A stretch of DNA of 7,106 bases from an uncultured archaeon (GCA_964468895.1 CAYXWT010000039.1:1-7106), one strand, 5' to 3'. Counted from the stretch's first letter, positions 165 to 7,106 are shown. Notes: generated from the letters alone by a model not told the origin. A program made the numbers and translations.

Positions 165-692
165 TTAAAGTTTGTTTATTATTGCCATTTTTTCTATAAT
201 TTGATCTTCTATATCTTTTTTAGATTTTATATTATAAAATCTAAGGGCTTTATTTTGATTATATTTTTCTATTTTTAATTCTTTTAAATCTAAATTGTTT
301 GTAATTTTATTAATATCTTTTGTAGTTATTTCTTTTGAACTTACAATTTCTAAGAAAACATTATTTTTACCTTTTTTAATAAAAAATCCTTTGTCTATTT
401 TGTTTAACTGATTGCTACAATTTAAAGTTAAAAGTATTTCATTTTTAAGATTTTTAGAAGTGTTAATTTTATCAAATATTCTATTTTTGGATATAAATAT
501 AGCCCATAACAGGTGATTTTTACTGTATATTTGTGTGTTTGGTATTATTAATATGTCTAAATAAGATTTTTTATCATTTTTTTGATCTTCAATTCTTTTT
601 AAATAGTTTTCTATATTATTAATATTTATAGATCCATAAATATTATATATAAAGATCTTCTTTTTTCCTAAACTAAAATAATGTTTGTTCAT
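165..692 (-). CDS. cgi121: KEOPS complex subunit Cgi121 (kinase-binding protein CGI-121 family)
   Basis: This is a 175-aa ORF. The core HLLWAIFISKNRIFDKINTSKNLKNEILLTLNCSNQLNKIDKGFFIKKGKNNVFLEIV parallels the conserved Cgi121/TPRKB block (human ...[46 protein letters not shown]; M. jannaschii ...HVLHAINQAKTKKPIAKSFWMEILVRASGQRQIHEAIKIIGAKDGNVCLI). The C-terminal helix DIEDQIIEKMAIINKL parallels ...VERVLEKIALIELKK. Size fits the family. Confidence 0.65.
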   Translation of the reverse strand: MNKHYFSLGKKKIFIYNIYGSININNIENYLKRIEDQKNDKKSYLDILIIPNTQIYSKNHLLWAIFISKNRIFDKINTSKNLKNEILLTLNCSNQLNKIDKGFFIKKGKNNVFLEIVSSKEITTKDINKITNNLDLKELKIEKYNQNKALRFYNIKSKKDIEDQIIEKMAIINKL

Positions 693-1254: not shown

Positions 1255-1827
1255 ATGACATTTAAAAAAAATAGAAATTTGTTTTCTTTAAAACAAATAA
1301 AAAAAGATTTAAAAAATAAAAAAGAACTTAAAAAGTCCTTTATTTTTTTAATTTATTTTTTAGTTATATTTGTAGTTGTTTATTTATTTTTAAATAATGT
1401 GCTTTATAATTATATTAATTATTGTTATGGTTTTATTTCTAATTTTATAATTTCAAATATGTTTGGTATAAATACCAGTTTTATATTTGATGATATTAAT
1501 CTTATTTCTGTAATACTTATTAATTCTTTAAATTATCCTGTATTTATAACTTTTTTATGTACTGGTATATTAGAATTTTCTTTAATAAGTTCTGCAATAT
1601 TAGCTTCCAAAGGTATTAGTTTAAAAAATAGAATTTATGGTTTTTTACTTAGTATTCCTTTAGTAATTGTATTTAATATTTTTAGAATAGTTTGTACAAT
1701 TTTAATGATAATTTATTTTTCATTACCATTAGCAGAGTTTTTACATTCTTTTTTATTTAGATTATTTTTAATAATAATTGTAATTGGTTTTTATTATTTC
1801 TGGTTTAAATTTTATTATAATAAATAA
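1255..1827 (+). CDS. Exosortase/archaeosortase-family integral membrane transpeptidase, minimal 190-aa form
   Basis: The protein has a Lys-rich N-terminus followed by about 5 hydrophobic helices. Family-type motifs occur in the right order at helix ends: F-L-C-T-G (Cys102, nt 1558-1560), N-I-F-R-I (Asn141/Arg144, nt 1675-1686) and E-F-L-H-S (His164, nt 1744-1746). The Cys-to-Arg spacing of 42 residues is about what I recall for Haloferax ArtA (Cys173/Arg214). A candidate substrate gene with a C-terminal motif + TM + basic tail lies nearby. Confidence 0.6.
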   Translation: MTFKKNRNLFSLKQIKKDLKNKKELKKSFIFLIYFLVIFVVVYLFLNNVLYNYINYCYGFISNFIISNMFGINTSFIFDDINLISVILINSLNYPVFITFLCTGILEFSLISSAILASKGISLKNRIYGFLLSIPLVIVFNIFRIVCTILMIIYFSLPLAEFLHSFLFRLFLIIIVIGFYYFWFKFYYNK

Positions 1828-1839
1828 GAATAAGAATAT

Positions 1840-2226
1840 TTAAGATTTACTATCTTTAATTAGTTTTTTTACTTGTTCAACTGTTGTATATTCTAATGGA
1901 TTTATGTTTTCTATAATATACTTCATTTCTTTTAATTCTTCAGCTTTAGCAAATCTTTTTGTAAAAAGTTCCATGTTTGTTTCTAAGGATCTAATTTTTT
2001 TTGTAATTTTATCTTGTTGATCTAATATTTCAGTAATTTTAGAGTTATCAATATCACTGTTGGAAGATCCACTGCTTTTGGATGCAATTTTTTTATTTAA
2101 AATTAAAATATTTCTTCCAAGTATTTTTTCATTATGTACTAAATATTTAATTTTTTGAGATAATACAAGTATACTTGATTGTAATGCTTTAATATCTTGC
2201 ATTATTCCTGGTTGTTCATCACTCAT
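1840..2226 (-). CDS. Hypothetical coiled-coil protein, 128 aa, no predicted TM segment or signal peptide
   Basis: The ORF is complete and convergent with the sortase-like gene (12-nt gap) and divergent from the surface-protein gene. It has two heptad-like helical segments, IMQDIKALQSSILVLSQKIKYLVHNEKILGRNILILNKKI and ITEILDQQDKITKKIRSLETNMELFTKRFAKAEELKEMKYII. These are separated by a Ser-rich linker, SKSSGSSNSDIDNS. I recognise no family. Confidence 0.55.
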   Translation of the reverse strand: MSDEQPGIMQDIKALQSSILVLSQKIKYLVHNEKILGRNILILNKKIASKSSGSSNSDIDNSKITEILDQQDKITKKIRSLETNMELFTKRFAKAEELKEMKYIIENINPLEYTTVEQVKKLIKDSKS

Positions 2227-2407: not shown

Positions 2408-2497
2408 GTGATTGTTATGATTTTAAAAATAAAAAAAATATTTACTTTATTAATGTTATCTATTTGTTTAATTATATTTACAAATAATATATTTGCA
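2408..2497 (+). other. N-terminal Sec-type signal peptide of the surface protein
   Basis: MIVMILKIKK is the basic n-region, IFTLLMLSICLIIF the hydrophobic core and TNNIFA/IS the small-residue cleavage context. The cleavage position is estimated by eye. Confidence 0.6.
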
Positions 2498-5449
2498 ATA
2501 TCTTTAAATATAGATTCTTTTCAAGTAAGAACAGATTCCTATAATTTTTATGATAATGTACAGCAAGGTAACTATTATGATAATGTAGATTTGAAGATGA
2601 ATTTTTCTATAGATCAATTACTATCTAATAATAATTATTTACCTGTATTATTAAATTCAAAAATATATGGTTTACTTCCAAATGGCCAAATAGTTTTAAT
2701 AGATGTAATGCCTACTATGCATCATAATATTTATTCAACTAATATTGAAGAATACTTCTCAAATAATTTATTTTATTTAGATCCCAGTTTTGCAGCTTAC
2801 ATGATTTCTTTAAATATAAATTCTTTAGATAATTCTTATTCTGATGTAGATTATGCTTATATTTTTTCAGATTATACAATTTATGAAAATTTTTATGATG
2901 AAGATTATTTTGAAGATTTTGAAGATTCAGAAAATCCTAATTCAAATGAAGATGATGATTTGCCAGATGATGAATTTGAAGATGATTTTAGTTTAAGTGG
3001 TGTTCAAGATTTTTATTTAGATGAAGATGAAAAAGAAGATTATAAATTATATCTTAAAAATAATTCAGATGAAGAACTTCAAATAATTTCTATAACTACT
3101 AATGAACCTACAAGATTAGATGTAGAAGATATTGATTATTCTGAGTTTATTAATAGTGATTCAACAGCTACTATTACTTTAGAATTATTAAGTGATACTG
3201 TAAGTAGTGATTATACTGGTGAATTAGAAATAAATGTAATGGCTAGATATTTAGAACAAGATGATATTAGTAAAACTTATGTTTCTAATTATCATATTGA
3301 AGATGAAGATTCTCAAAATACAAGTGATTGTTCAGATTTAGAAATAGACAATTCTAGATTTACTATAAATGATAATTTTATTAGTAATTTAGAAATAATT
3401 TTAATAAATGAAAGTGATGATTATTATTTTGAATTAGATGAAGTTAATATTGAATCTGATTCAATATTAGAAACAAAGGTTGTAAATTTTACTGAAGAAA
3501 TTGATGAAGAAAGTAATGGTGTTATTAATTTAGAAGTTATTAGTGATGATATTTCTAATAATACTACTAGAACTATTGAACTTGAAATTGAAGGTTATTT
3601 TAAAAGAGAAAATAGAGATTCAGAAAAGTGTAGAATTTCAAAAAATTTAAGAATAAATGTTGAGGATAATTCTTCTAATGAAGATAATTCTACCTCTCAA
3701 ACTAATTGTAACAATTTAATTTTATTTACTCCAAGTATTATTCAAGAAGAAAATACTATTAAAAACTATAATAAAAACAAAGGTTTTTTTGTAATAAATA
3801 ATAGTAATAAAGAATTTACTATTACTAATCTAATAATAAGTGATAATACTTCTAAATCAACACTTTCTAAAAATATAAGTTCTACTAAAATTTACGCAAA
3901 TTCAGATTTGTCTTTAGATTTTGATTTACAAACTAATGAAATTACTAATAATTTAATTTATTCAAAAGCAAATGTTTCTATAAGTGGAACTTTTTCAGAT
4001 GGTAGTATTTGTAATGCATTAGACACTAAACAAAATTTTGATTTATCAATAGTTAGTTCTGAAGATAAATGTTCTAAAATTGGATTAAGATCCAAAATAA
4101 TAACCACAGGTAATAATACTATTACTTTATTTAATAATTCAGATTTGTCTTTTTATGTTACTGATTTTTTAGAAGCAAATAAATTTAATTTAGAATCTAA
4201 TGTTAATTCTGTTCAGCATACTATTGAAAAAAATAAAACTAAAGATGTTAGTGTTGGTTTTTCAGGAAATGGATCTTTAGAATTAAAATTAAATGGAGTA
4301 TTTTCAGATGGAACTAATTGTTCATTTAGTGAAACTAGAAGTGGAATATTTGCTTCAACAAATATTTCAGAAATTGATTTTGCTGCAAATATAGATAATT
4401 GTTCATTTCAATTAGAGGTTCCTAGTTATTTAGAGATAGACGATTCTTATGAAACTATTAATTTAAATTTTAAAAATTTAAGTGTTAATGGTGGAAAAAT
4501 AACTTTAATAGGAAATGGAGTTGTAGTAAATCCATCTATAATTTATTTAGATGGTCAAGACGATTTTCAAAAAAACATAGTTATTTCTAATTTTTATGAA
4601 CCAGAAAGTGTTTTTTATAATGTTAAATTAAATGGTTGTGAAACAAAAACAGATTTTACTAATTTAGAAGAAAAAATAGATGTTTCTAAAAGAATTTATT
4701 TTGTTAGTTACCCTAATTTATTAAAGCCAAGTTCTAAATTAGTTGTTGTTGATTTAGAAATTAATAATTCTTATAATACTAAACAAAATATTAAACTTAA
4801 AGTTAGTGGATTTCCTTCTAGTTGGACTATTGAATCTAAAGATGTTCTTTTAAATGAAAGAACTTCTAATACTTTAAATTATTCATTTTATATAGATGAT
4901 TTAAATAATTCTAAAAAATACAATGGTTATATTGAAATTTATAAAAATAATTTAAAAATTAATTCTGTACCTTTAACTGTTGATTTAACTAAACCTACTA
5001 AAGAACTAATAATGAAATCTAGTTTAAGTAAATTAAATAGTTTAGAAAATACTTATGCTTTAGAGTTGTTTATAAATAATAAAAGTAATTCTTCTAAAGA
5101 ATATGTTGTTGATTTTAATTTAGATGGAAATTATGTTGTTGAAGGTAATAAAGAAATTAATTTGTTAGCTGATGAAAATAAAACTATAGAATATAAAATT
5201 GTTACTTTTGCTTTATTGAAAGATAGTTCTGTTATTGATGTTATTATAAAAGATAAAGTTAGTGGTGAAGAATTAGAATCTTCAGAATTAGTTTATACTT
5301 TAGAGAACAATGTTGGTTTAACTGGATTTTTAGTTTTTAATAGTTTATTAACAGAAATTGGACTTGCTATTGTTTTAATAATTATAATTATTAGTATAAT
5401 TATACAAATCAAAAAAAACAAAATTTCTAAAAATAAACCTAAAATTTAG
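2408..5449 (+). CDS. Large secreted cell-surface (S-layer-like) glycoprotein candidate and putative archaeosortase substrate
   Basis: This is a 1013-aa ORF. It begins with a signal peptide (KIKKIFTLLMLSICLIIFTNNIFA) and a roughly 130-aa N-terminal domain. A hyper-acidic linker follows, then a series of roughly 80-100-aa beta-sandwich-like modules. These have alternating hydrophobic patterns of the CARDB/NEW3 kind, e.g. LVVVDLEINNSYNTKQNIKLKVSGFPSSWTIES at nt 4739-4837. I hand-counted about 27 N-x-S/T sequons. The C-terminus is GLTGF, a hydrophobic helix and a KKNKISKNKPKI tail. No enzymatic motif was recognised. Confidence 0.8.
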   Translation: MIVMILKIKKIFTLLMLSICLIIFTNNIFAISLNIDSFQVRTDSYNFYDNVQQGNYYDNVDLKMNFSIDQLLSNNNYLPVLLNSKIYGLLPNGQIVLIDVMPTMHHNIYSTNIEEYFSNNLFYLDPSFAAYMISLNINSLDNSYSDVDYAYIFSDYTIYENFYDEDYFEDFEDSENPNSNEDDDLPDDEFEDDFSLSGVQDFYLDEDEKEDYKLYLKNNSDEELQIISITTNEPTRLDVEDIDYSEFINSDSTATITLELLSDTVSSDYTGELEINVMARYLEQDDISKTYVSNYHIEDEDSQNTSDCSDLEIDNSRFTINDNFISNLEIILINESDDYYFELDEVNIESDSILETKVVNFTEEIDEESNGVINLEVISDDISNNTTRTIELEIEGYFKRENRDSEKCRISKNLRINVEDNSSNEDNSTSQTNCNNLILFTPSIIQEENTIKNYNKNKGFFVINNSNKEFTITNLIISDNTSKSTLSKNISSTKIYANSDLSLDFDLQTNEITNNLIYSKANVSISGTFSDGSICNALDTKQNFDLSIVSSEDKCSKIGLRSKIITTGNNTITLFNNSDLSFYVTDFLEANKFNLESNVNSVQHTIEKNKTKDVSVGFSGNGSLELKLNGVFSDGTNCSFSETRSGIFASTNISEIDFAANIDNCSFQLEVPSYLEIDDSYETINLNFKNLSVNGGKITLIGNGVVVNPSIIYLDGQDDFQKNIVISNFYEPESVFYNVKLNGCETKTDFTNLEEKIDVSKRIYFVSYPNLLKPSSKLVVVDLEINNSYNTKQNIKLKVSGFPSSWTIESKDVLLNERTSNTLNYSFYIDDLNNSKKYNGYIEIYKNNLKINSVPLTVDLTKPTKELIMKSSLSKLNSLENTYALELFINNKSNSSKEYVVDFNLDGNYVVEGNKEINLLADENKTIEYKIVTFALLKDSSVIDVIIKDKVSGEELESSELVYTLENNVGLTGFLVFNSLLTEIGLAIVLIIIIISIIIQIKKNKISKNKPKI
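2894..3040 (+). other. Hyper-acidic, aromatic-studded linker in the surface protein
   Basis: The segment translates to YDEDYFEDFEDSENPNSNEDDDLPDDEFEDDFSLSGVQDFYLDEDEKED. More than half of the residues are D or E, interspersed with F/Y and with only one basic residue (a single Lys). Confidence 0.8.
3329..4639 (+). repeat. Four divergent tandem protein modules, each bracketed by a cysteine pair, arising from internal duplication in the surface-protein gene
   Basis: All 8 cysteines of the mature protein lie here: TGT codons at 3329, 3629, 3707, 4010, 4070, 4319, 4400 and 4637. Their spacings alternate long and short: 100, 26, 101, 20, 83, 27 and 79 residues. Modules start C-x-x-[LI]-x-[LIV] (CSDLEI, CNNLIL, CSKIGL, CSFQLE). 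They end [ILV]-x-G-x-F...C (IEGYFKRENRDSEKC, ISGTFSDGSIC, LNGVFSDGTNC, and the more diverged VKLNGC, which keeps only the G...C). DNA-level relics survive: identical TTCAGATTTGTCTTT at 3901-3915 and 4138-4152, and TTTTCAGATGG at 3992-4002 and 4301-4311. Confidence 0.65.
5315..5446 (+). other. C-terminal tripartite sorting-signal candidate: motif, TM helix and basic tail
   Basis: The segment reads G-L-T-G-F-LVFNSLLTE-IGLAIVLIIIIISIIIQI-KKNKISKNKPKI*. A short Gly/aromatic motif (TGF codons at 5321-5329) is followed by an 18-residue hydrophobic helix and a Lys-rich cytoplasmic tail at the extreme C-terminus. This is the architecture recognised by sortases, exosortases and archaeosortases. Confidence 0.55.
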
Positions 5450-5562
5450 AAAACACTTAAAATAATGGTTTGTTTTGTAAAATAGAAAAGAATATATATT
5501 AAAATATACTTCTAATATATAACAAAGGCTTTAATTAAGTAATTGTAGTTAATTAAAAATTT

Positions 5563-5568
5563 GAGGTG
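5563..5568 (+). promoter_or_regulatory. Shine-Dalgarno site for the M6 metalloprotease gene
   Basis: GAGGTG perfectly complements the archaeal anti-SD core and lies 9 nt upstream of ATG 5578. Confidence 0.6.
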
Positions 5569-5577
5569 TTGGATTTT

Positions 5578-7106
5578 ATGAATTATAAGAAAATTGTATT
5601 TTCTTGTTTTGTATTTGTAATAACTGTTTGTTTTTTAACAAATTTTATTAATTCTGAGATTGCAATAGATAATAGTGCCCCCAAATTTAAAAATAATAAT
5701 AATGGTGAACTAACATTTTATTCTAATAGTTCAAGTTTAAAATTAAACAAAACTTCCATTTCAACTTATTCTTCTAAACCTGCTGATTTATCTGAAGCTT
5801 CTAAAAAATTAAATTCTAATTCTGAAAAAAAAATTATTTCTAAAAAAGAAAAATTCGATACCATTGATTTTAGTGAATTAAATTTAGATATATTTTCATT
5901 TTTAAATGTAAATGTAGAAGAACCACATGTTGATTATGACTTAGTTGATGAATTAAGTAATGATTTATTATTTCCTCCTGAAGAAGTGATTTCAAAGGAA
6001 GAATACACAGAATTATTAAGATTAGCAGCAAGTAATAGAGATCCTCCAATAAATTCTAATTCAAATACTACTGTTCCAAATTTAACAGGGACTTGTCCTA
6101 CTACTGGTGAGATACACATTCCAGTTTTATTAGTTGATTTTGCTGATCAACCACATACATTAGAAAGTACTGTTTATGAAGATATGTATAATTCAGATAA
6201 TTATTTGGATGATTCTGGAATAAGTGTAAAGGATTATTATTTACATGAATCTTATGGTTCACTTAATTTTGTTTTTGATATTTATGATTGGCAAACACTA
6301 AGTAATAATACTTATGAGTATTATAGAAATACATCTTCTACTCAATGGGAAATGATGTTAGATACTATTAATTTATTTGATAGTAATGTAGATTTTAGTC
6401 AATATGATAATGATGGTGATGGAAGATTAGATGGAATAGTTATAATACCAGCAGGAAATAATAGTTCAACTTATGGAATAAGATCACATGTTAGAATATT
6501 AAAAGAATATGATAGTAATCCTGTTGATGGAAAATATCTTGGAAATACAGCTTTAATTCCAGAAATAAGTTCAGGAAGTGCTTGTTATCCTGAAGATTGT
6601 AGGACTGTTGTAAATACTGTTACTCATGAAATGGGTCATATATTAGGACTTCCAGATCTTTATGAAATAAATCCAACAACTGGAGCTCAAGAAGGTTTAG
6701 GTATAAATGCATTAAGTATGATGAGTTGGACAAGTACTAATTCTCAAAAACCTATAAATTTAGATCCTTGGAGTAGATTTTATTTAGGTTGGTTAGAAGG
6801 TACTTTTATAGGTACATATGGTCCAAGTATGCAAGAAAATGAAGATCTTTGTAATGATACTATCCAAACACTTAGAAGTGTAAATGATTATCCTGATTTA
6901 GTAGTAGTAAGTTCAAATCATTTAAATGATAGAGAATTCTTTTTGGTGGAAAACAGATTTGTAGATGTAGATGATCCTAATAATTTGGATGTTGGTAATG
7001 ATATGGTTGTAGATCCTGATGATGAATTTGGACATTTAGGTTTAGCAATATATCATATAGATGAACAATATATTGAAGATAATTTTTTAACAAACAGTAT
7101 TGCTCA
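5578..7106 (+). CDS. Secreted M6-family (immune inhibitor A-like) zinc metalloprotease, 3'-truncated by the window edge
   Basis: I translated this by hand in frame 1; it is open from ATG 5578 to the window end (509 full codons). It is absent from the ORF track because it has no stop in the window. The signal peptide is MNYKKIVFSCFVFVITVCFLTNFINS. M6-domain hallmarks appear in order: TGEIHIPVLLVDFADQ, VKDYYLHESYGSLNF, VDFSQYDNDGDGRLDGIVII, THEMGHILGLPDLY and LDPWSRFYLGWL. Confidence 0.85.
   Translation, partial: MNYKKIVFSCFVFVITVCFLTNFINSEIAIDNSAPKFKNNNNGELTFYSNSSSLKLNKTSISTYSSKPADLSEASKKLNSNSEKKIISKKEKFDTIDFSELNLDIFSFLNVNVEEPHVDYDLVDELSNDLLFPPEEVISKEEYTELLRLAASNRDPPINSNSNTTVPNLTGTCPTTGEIHIPVLLVDFADQPHTLESTVYEDMYNSDNYLDDSGISVKDYYLHESYGSLNFVFDIYDWQTLSNNTYEYYRNTSSTQWEMMLDTINLFDSNVDFSQYDNDGDGRLDGIVIIPAGNNSSTYGIRSHVRILKEYDSNPVDGKYLGNTALIPEISSGSACYPEDCRTVVNTVTHEMGHILGLPDLYEINPTTGAQEGLGINALSMMSWTSTNSQKPINLDPWSRFYLGWLEGTFIGTYGPSMQENEDLCNDTIQTLRSVNDYPDLVVVSSNHLNDREFFLVENRFVDVDDPNNLDVGNDMVVDPDDEFGHLGLAIYHIDEQYIEDNFLTNSIA
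6625..6663 (+). other. Zinc-binding / catalytic HExxH motif of the M6 protease
   Basis: The codons read H-E-M-G-H-I-L-G-L-P-D-L-Y. This matches the M6 consensus HE(F/M)GHxLGLPDxY. Confidence 0.85.

Follow-up and report, generated by a model that had tools for sequence, protein, structure and literature searches.

The stretch of DNA analyzed in this study (7,106 nucleotides; GCA_964468895.1, CAYXWT010000039.1:1-7106; hereafter the window) was derived from an uncultured archaeon and encodes a large secreted surface protein of 1013 amino acids (aa), here termed BIG, together with a 190-aa member of the exosortase/archaeosortase family (hereafter the sortase), the gene of which lies approximately 0.6 kb upstream of that of BIG. 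BIG terminates with a short signature, a hydrophobic helix and a Lys-rich cluster, and the evidence leaves us evenly divided on the proposal, the likeliest of those considered, that the sortase, which belongs to an archaeosortase subfamily without a name, and the tail of BIG, the clade's large surface protein, form a dedicated pair. When one genome per species was scanned, the relatives included Ca. Forterrea multitransposorum, Ca. Iainarchaeum and metagenome-assembled genomes labelled 'Diapherotrites', and the source is therefore a Forterrea-like member of Iainarchaeota, within DPANN. The G+C content of the window is approximately 20%. The features of the window that concern the sortase and BIG are as follows.

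Positions 1255 to 1827, plus strand: 190-aa membrane protein of the exosortase/archaeosortase family, the candidate processing enzyme (TIGR04178 match; putative catalytic Cys102, Arg144 and His164).
Positions 2408 to 5449, plus strand: gene of BIG, the large 1013-aa secreted surface protein (open reading frame, ORF, with a GTG start).
Positions 2408 to 2497, plus strand: predicted signal peptide of BIG, MIVMILKIKKIFTLLMLSICLIIFTNNIFA, followed by ISLN (read from the sequence).
Positions 5318 to 5338, plus strand: signature heptad L-T-G-F-L-V-F, aa 971-977 (column counts in 18 orthologues).
Positions 5339 to 5356, plus strand: variable spacer N-S-L-L-T-E, aa 978-983, from the heptad to the hydrophobic core (translation and orthologue alignment).
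Positions 5357 to 5410, plus strand: hydrophobic transmembrane core, IGLAIVLIIIIISIIIQI, aa 984-1001 (translation and Kyte-Doolittle hydropathy).
Positions 5411 to 5446, plus strand: predicted basic cytoplasmic end, KKNKISKNKPKI, with 6 Lys among 12 residues (stop codon at 5447-5449).

The C-terminus of the ORF at 2408-5449 was read by translating positions 5315-5449, which gave GLTGFLVFNSLLTEIGLAIVLIIIIISIIIQIKKNKISKNKPKI followed by the stop codon. The tail opens with GLTGF (aa 970-974), continues with the partly polar 9-residue spacer LVFNSLLTE and the 18-residue hydrophobic core (Kyte-Doolittle score of 3.17 in a 17-residue window), and closes with the 12-residue Lys-rich end. Every element described in the first-pass annotation was found on translation, including the Glu (Glu983) embedded in the spacer and the distance of nine residues to the core. 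The same annotation had noted that no Thr/Ser-rich linker precedes the motif, and the residues at that place, ELESSELVYTLENNV, are indeed not Thr/Ser-rich. The order of signature, helix and basic cluster is that of the generic tripartite sorting signal as defined by Haft. No NCBIfam family was matched by the 69-aa tail at E<=1, and the 49-aa tail matched at E<=10 only GG_III-CTERM with 11 bits (cut-off 22) and one unrelated family; the statement that the tail fits no named CTERM class is borne out by these searches. In the AlphaFold2 model of the last 300 aa of BIG (mean predicted local distance difference test score, pLDDT, of 79), two beta-sandwich domains are followed by a linker and a single helix (aa 979-1009), and the motif lies within the low-confidence linker (pLDDT <50 at aa 968-979). 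As the motif is placed in a predicted unstructured linker and not in a folded domain, a role in recognition is favoured over a structural one.

The same kind of tail was found on an 800-1050-aa BIG orthologue downstream of the sortase in every related locus. In the alignment of 18 orthologues, of which the median pairwise identity is 33%, the columns of the signature were occupied by L/I in 15, T/S in 17, G/A in 18, F in 15 (L in the other 3), F/L in 18, a variable residue, and L/F in 18, giving a family consensus of [LI]-[TS]-[GA]-F-[FL]-x-[LF]. The heptad is followed by 4-9 variable polar or small residues, the hydrophobic core and a cluster of K/R, the last being present in all of the orthologues. 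The signature was also kept in 11 further orthologues from metagenomes (all 11 complete tails). An exhaustive HMMER search of 1.84 billion representatives yielded 47 members of the BIG family, 41 of which possess a C-terminal helix. A loose form of the motif occurs within 20 residues of this helix in 37 of the 41, compared with 2.5% of the 20-residue windows elsewhere in the same proteins; the corresponding figures for the strict form are 27 of 41 and 1.6%. Thus, the possibility raised in the first-pass annotation that the tail is unique to one protein does not hold.

The distant members of the family share 22-25% identity with BIG, and some of them are positional orthologues in loci of higher G+C content. 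In these homologues, the motif takes forms such as GTAF, PTAF, TGF and SGF, and the motif and the layout recur in loci of 36-47% G+C. The only phylum label on any distant homologue was Micrarchaeota. The N-terminal modules of some tail-bearing homologues differ, being a cupredoxin domain, or Big_9/He_PIG domains with a weak, sub-threshold match to CBM_4_9, and all of the homologues of this kind have a common beta-sandwich region before the tail. Because the motif is found on homologues with differing N-terminal modules, the tail is regarded as a shared terminal module. Judged from its recurrence, the tail is a module of the whole family, and is neither a peculiarity of a single protein nor a by-product of AT-rich composition. 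A search of 5.8 billion proteins with a profile built from 13 tails retrieved only three matches at E<=10 and not even the known orthologues, possibly due to the composition correction on the hydrophobic stretch, and was uninformative. Two odd matches of the profile were inspected: P0045 is a stray 40-aa ORF beside EF-G, and P0044 sits on a gene-sparse contig (P and L followed by a number designate proteins and loci, respectively). Altogether, the chances seem to us balanced that BIG, the major large surface protein, has in this tail a C-terminal module for sorting and for anchorage in the membrane.

As for the rest of BIG, no Pfam or NCBIfam family was found. The N-terminus comprises a basic n-region, a hydrophobic h-region and an IFA/ISA c-region, a layout shared by the orthologues, and is predicted to be a Sec-type signal peptide. 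The ORF as listed starts at GTG (2408-2419; MIVMILKIKK...), and an in-frame ATG three codons on (MILKIKK...) would yield 1010 aa; the orthologue in the related locus L005 begins with MNLKINK. A fold search with the C-terminal domains gave only generic matches to tandem Ig/FN3-like beta-sandwiches, namely RbmA, the SPD-2 domain of CEP192, chains of the ciliary central apparatus and transglutaminase chains. Eight Cys residues (aa 308, 408, 434, 535, 555, 638, 665 and 744) are invariant in six orthologues of 33-66% identity, which suggests possible disulfides or metal sites in repeated units of the ectodomain. The identity of BIG with the Micrarchaeota S-layer protein SLP_Mh was considered and rejected, as the latter belongs to a different family with a PF05123-like S-layer domain and no reported C-terminal helix.

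The 190-aa protein matched TIGR04178 with 43.5 bits (cut-off 23; E 2.9e-11). The same model was matched by all 21 members of the sortase family, and the six that were scored individually gave 41-48 bits. A search of 5.8 billion proteins retrieved 42 homologues of the sortase, nearly all of 173-211 aa. Cys102, Arg144 and His164 are invariant in the alignment of 21 homologues (45-75% identity), and Cys/Arg/His constitute the proposed catalytic triad of the exosortase/archaeosortase family (PMC6098224; Haft 2023, bioRxiv 10.1101/2023.06.07.544157). The AlphaFold2 model of the sortase (pLDDT of 86.8) is that of a polytopic membrane protein, with long helices at 22-69, 105-116, 123-154 and 157-188 and a short beta-hairpin. 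Hydropathy and the positive-inside rule place the three residues probably in the outer halves of the helices. No relative of solved structure was found by the sequence search or by the fold search.

The models of the named subfamilies were matched by the sortase family only far below their cut-offs. For ArtA (TIGR04125; cut-off 75), one member scored 20.3 bits and the protein of the window gave no match at E<=1. The scores were 24-27 bits for ArtD (TIGR04175; cut-off 125), 16-24 for pacearchaeosortase (NF033505; cut-off 80; no match by the window protein), 19-31 for XrtH (TIGR04177; cut-off 86), 31 for XrtX (NF046081; cut-off 170), 13-25 for XrtG (TIGR03110; cut-off 102.75; 12.8 by the window protein) and 20 for heimdallarchaeosortase (cut-off 130). 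As the cut-off of the superfamily was reached and that of every named subfamily was far from reached, the 190-aa protein is, on its profile scores, a true member of the exosortase/archaeosortase superfamily and belongs to an unnamed subfamily. The "mini-sortase" of the first-pass annotation is therefore a genuine family member with an intact Cys/Arg/His set. Its small size, on the other hand, does not qualify it as a new form, because the models of ArtD, XrtG, XrtH, XrtX and pacearchaeosortase span 150-187 positions.

Among the known anchoring systems, ArtA and its PGF-CTERM substrates share with the present case the enzyme superfamily with the conserved Cys/Arg/His, and a substrate that is a large Sec-exported surface protein bearing a signature, a transmembrane helix and a basic cluster. 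In contrast to ArtA, the model of which has 271 positions, the present enzyme is of 190 aa. The signature in BIG is [TS]-[GA]-F instead of P-G-F, and no PGF-CTERM match was obtained from the BIG tail at E<=10. Furthermore, PGF abuts the helix whereas 4-9 residues intervene in BIG, and the basic cluster of BIG is rich in Lys rather than Arg. The Thr/Ser-rich (O-glycosylated) linker absent from BIG is a typical, not a strictly defining, feature of PGF-CTERM. The lineage also differs, being DPANN and not Euryarchaeota.

The closest conceptual precedent is pacearchaeosortase (NF033505) with PACE-CTERM-PROT (NF033506), in which a DPANN sortase and one large target are already present in NCBIfam. 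This enzyme is also short (a model of 167 positions) and is linked through its NCBIfam name to one large 'putative S-layer protein', and weak matches to NF033505 were obtained from 8 of the 21 members of the present sortase family. The differences are that the present enzyme falls far below the cut-off of NF033505, that BIG does not match NF033506 (cut-off 110), and that Pacearchaeota are concerned there and Iainarchaeota here. A literature search returned no paper describing the pacearchaeosortase/PACE-CTERM system. ArtD, XrtG, XrtH and XrtX are similar in size to the present enzymes and align with them weakly from end to end, indicating that the minimal architecture is known, although the present enzymes lie far below all four cut-offs. 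Sortase A and its LPXTG substrates (TIGR01167) resemble the present case in the series of signature, spacer, helix and basic cluster, a spacer being typical of LPXTG signals. Sub-threshold matches to TIGR01167 were given by 6 of 13 tails (best E 0.04), and may reflect the common helix and basic cluster; the tails of 12 orthologues gave only sub-threshold matches to the LPXTG, Loki-, Heimdall- and PEF-CTERM models. Sortase A/LPXTG differs in that neither an LPXTG motif nor an enzyme of the sortase fold is present here, and that the host is an archaeon. We know of no peptidoglycan wall in DPANN archaea.

The case for a functional link between the enzyme and the tail starts from their co-occurrence. 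In all of the Forterrea-like loci reaching both positions (genome scan and contig look-ups), both the sortase and BIG are present, and the sortase was detected in 12 of the 12 metagenome contigs that extend upstream of BIG. A search with the tail pattern in 300 kb of related loci gave 17 matches, all 17 being BIG orthologues. These are the grounds on which the new enzyme/signal pair put forward in the first-pass annotation stands in part: both partners are unnamed, and they co-occur in all covering contigs of the Forterrea-like clade. The part of the claim that leaned on proximity is weakened by the collinearity of the region.

Several observations weigh against a dedicated pair. A block of approximately 20 kb is collinear across the clade with its housekeeping genes (enolase, L1, L10, L12, helicase, ERCC4, Cgi121, S8e, sortase, coiled-coil gene, BIG, and then the L3 operon or pilin-like genes). 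As the whole block is collinear, the adjacency of the sortase to BIG is no more telling than its adjacency to S8e, and their co-occurrence is phylogenetically non-independent. The two genes are not co-transcribed since a gene on the opposite strand separates them, and in one lineage (locus L029) approximately 5 kb of unrelated genes lie between the sortase and BIG. The 300 kb searched with the tail pattern contained no second protein bearing the tail. The M6 protease, the C-terminus of which is missing from the window and had been singled out in the first-pass annotation, is complete in a 10.2-kb contig; its last residues are ...YCASNLN, with no helix, and it was ruled out as a second substrate. 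No column in the sortase tracks the G/A variant of the motif, though the G and A forms replace each other several times along the clustering of the sortases. The conservation of the motif window stands only at the 77th percentile within BIG. Finally, signature and helix are separated in the BIG family by 4-9 residues, polar or small, unlike in exosortase-, archaeosortase- and rhombosortase-type signals, in which the signature abuts the helix: PEP-CTERM, PGF-CTERM and GlyGly-CTERM signatures have no spacer, and LPXTG has one (Haft 2023).

The distant homologues add to these points. In five independent loci of distant homologues, the tail is kept and no exosortase-family ORF was detected in the visible 0.3-10 kb on either side, as examined with the hidden Markov model of the family, by scanning candidate ORFs against NCBIfam and Pfam, and by listing the ORFs with multiple helices. 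In three of the five, the gene order is RtcB, BIG and the L3 operon. Co-occurrence of the tail with the sortase is complete within the related, collinear genomes of the Forterrea-like clade, and was not seen within the visible flanks of these five loci.

In the Forterrea subclade, 45-60 residues follow the basic cluster of BIG and end with a conserved (I/V)TL(G/K)(E/Q)L(D/E). Such cytoplasmic extensions were seen in the loci L010/L007 (BIG aa ~985-1047), L014, L020, L022 and L023, and in the proteins P0056, P0058, P0060 and P0062; in P0056, the extension is of approximately 190 aa and makes the tripartite signal internal. The conservation of the extensions (45-190 aa in some subclades) suggests a lasting function of the anchor region, which is another point at odds with a dedicated pair. 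On the other hand, ArtA processes a tripartite signal located away from the extreme C-terminus, and genomes with ArtA can have a single substrate (PMC6098224). Since a non-C-terminal signal is processed by ArtA, the long extensions of some BIG orthologues are compatible with processing.

The foremost alternative is that the tail is a permanent type-I transmembrane anchor, in which the motif serves in packing at the membrane interface or in contact with a partner, and the sortase acts elsewhere or owes its position to a leftover of collinearity. The stalk-type surface proteins exemplified by SlaB of Sulfolobales are likewise large and secreted with a single C-terminal helix, which SlaB keeps when mature; those organisms possess no archaeosortase (PMC6098224), whereas the present clade always has one. 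The distant loci that retain the motif but show no gene of the exosortase family in their visible flanks, the collinear block that explains the adjacency, the spacer atypical of exosortase-type signals, the unexceptional conservation of the motif relative to the rest of BIG, and the conserved extensions, which imply that the cytoplasmic end matters, all fit this alternative. It leaves unexplained why an apparently catalytically intact archaeosortase is kept in every genome of a strongly reduced clade (genomes/contigs of 0.66-0.98 Mb) with no other candidate substrate seen nearby. Conservation in a predicted disordered linker usually means recognition, the motif, helix and basic cluster together make up the defining layout of a sorting signal, and the processing by ArtA of signals with long C-terminal regions behind them takes away part of the force of the extensions. 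We regard a permanent anchor as a serious possibility, short of probable.

Alternatively, the tail may be a sorting signal cut by another protease of the rhomboid or CPBP/Rce1 type, as in GlyGly-CTERM/rhombosortase and CGP-CTERM/archaeomyxosortase, with the mini-sortase being unrelated. The small residue (G/A) followed by hydrophobic ones in the BIG motif presumably bears a loose resemblance to rhomboid-type sites, and the motif persists in lineages with no sortase seen near the gene. Some tripartite signals are in fact paired with non-exosortase enzymes, but the Cys required by CPBP-type signals is lacking in the motif (Haft 2023). As no rhomboid or CPBP gene was labelled by Pfam in any locus and the sortase would be left with no candidate substrate, we consider this explanation improbable.

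It is quite improbable, in our view, that the tail is a diverged PGF-CTERM or PACE-CTERM tail that a more sensitive model would assign to a known class. Such a relationship is hinted at by T-P-G-F-I-A-G before the helix in one distant homologue, S-P-G-L or P-P-T-G-F in others, by a weak match of one distant tail to the C-terminal end of NF033506 (13.1 bits), and by the sub-threshold matches to the Loki-, Heimdall- and PEF-CTERM models mentioned above. All of these matches are far below the cut-offs and could be accounted for by the common helix and basic cluster, whereas the BIG tail itself matches none of the models, none of the 18 aligned orthologues has Pro at the signature position, and the enzyme is far below the cut-offs of ArtA and pacearchaeosortase. 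Finally, although Ile, Lys, Asn and Phe are very common at approximately 20% G+C and hydrophobic runs of Ile arise easily, the recurrence of the motif and layout at 36-47% G+C and the juxtamembrane enrichment (37/41 against 2.5%) make it hardly credible that the Ile/Lys-rich end arose by chance from the composition of a genome with 20% G+C and carries no specific signal.

The sequence of BIG indicates export via Sec and retention in the membrane by the C-terminal helix, with the Lys cluster inside. If the sortase and the tail are a dedicated pair, the juxtamembrane signature would be displayed in the flexible linker at the outer face of the membrane, where the 190-aa archaeosortase-family cysteine enzyme could recognize it and cut at or near it; by analogy with ArtA and PGF-CTERM, the helix may be swapped for a lipid or another anchor. 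One enzyme would serve one main substrate, and neither the sortase subfamily nor the signal flavour has a name. We tentatively propose '(T/S)(G/A)F-CTERM' as a provisional name for what is possibly an undescribed class of signal with a spacer as in LPXTG. Its bearer would be a major surface protein, conserved in Forterrea-like Iainarchaeota and in distant archaeal lineages, the gene of which immediately precedes the L3 operon; in the Forterrea-like clade, the signal would be processed by a dedicated archaeosortase subfamily of 180-190 aa.

The remaining genes of the window are as follows.

Positions 165 to 692, minus strand: Cgi121 gene.
Positions 813 to 1208: ribosomal protein S8e gene.
Positions 1840 to 2226, minus strand: gene of a 128-aa protein, probably coiled-coil, between the sortase gene and the BIG gene.
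Positions 5579 to the end of the window (7106), plus strand: M6-like metalloprotease gene, start only.

No RNA family was matched in the Rfam search of the window. Neither a terminator-like site within 5300-5650 nor an ORF of at least 50 aa on the strand opposite to the tail region was found, and the promoter-like matches within 5300-5650 did not exceed the frequency in shuffled sequences. A coiled-coil-type protein of 128-130 aa is encoded between the sortase and BIG in every locus (L005, L007-L023, L027, L029 and L038-L053). The 128-aa protein is 58-85% identical across the related loci, being more conserved than the sortase or BIG in the same comparison, and gave only weak, sub-threshold matches of coiled-coil type in Pfam. 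The insert between the sortase and the coiled-coil/BIG genes in L029 (2830-3817 and 4639-7868) comprises a ParE-type toxin and an RHH antitoxin, two fragments of a PEP-utilizer and a radical-SAM gene.

BIG and its distant homologues are located directly upstream of the ribosomal L3-L4-L23-L2-S19-L22-S3 operon in L007, L013, L019-L023, L027, L029, L031, L033, L035 and L041-L044. In lineages of 36-47% G+C, the homologue of BIG is still beside the L3 operon, with RtcB in place of the sortase as the upstream neighbour. For a major envelope protein, such a conserved place next to genes of high expression would be fitting. The RtcB gene beside a distant BIG homologue contains an intein, the order in Pfam being RtcB, Intein_splicing and RtcB (L033, 801-3743; L034, 163-3105). 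The full gene of the M6-like metalloprotease (immune inhibitor A type; L001, 7580-9487) encodes HEMGH and a signal peptide with no membrane anchor, and Peptidase_M6 was matched in Pfam only faintly; a homologue is found after pilin-like genes in L047. In part of the clade, BIG is followed by one to three genes, the predicted N-termini of which have the look of an archaeal class III (type IV pilin-like) signal peptide (MKNKNAQISLEILAILGIVILG...), as in L001 (9609-10205), L009, L011, L015, L017, L038-L041, L047, L049, L051 and L052, and some of the products are of 550-1000 aa.

DPANN archaea depend on other cells or live attached to them, and the way in which they anchor their surface proteins is, to our knowledge, almost entirely uncharacterized. 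Archaeosortases have been placed only in a subset of Euryarchaeota (review PMC6098224), and a literature search found no paper in which archaeosortases are named alongside Iainarchaeota, Diapherotrites or Forterrea. Should the pairing prove false, the tail is an ordinary transmembrane anchor whose juxtamembrane motif is conserved. If the pairing is real, a dedicated enzyme is retained for a single large surface protein in a genome of approximately 0.7-1 Mb, implying that BIG is central to the cell envelope, possibly as a component of an S-layer or a stalk. A compact single-substrate enzyme of approximately 190 aa would also be convenient for the question of whether archaeosortases are transpeptidases, and a signal containing a spacer would widen the known rules of substrate recognition in the archaeosortase family. 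Should the '(T/S)(G/A)F-CTERM' reading hold as well, Iainarchaeota would have their first defined archaeosortase system, the single-substrate logic of which would suit minimal genomes.

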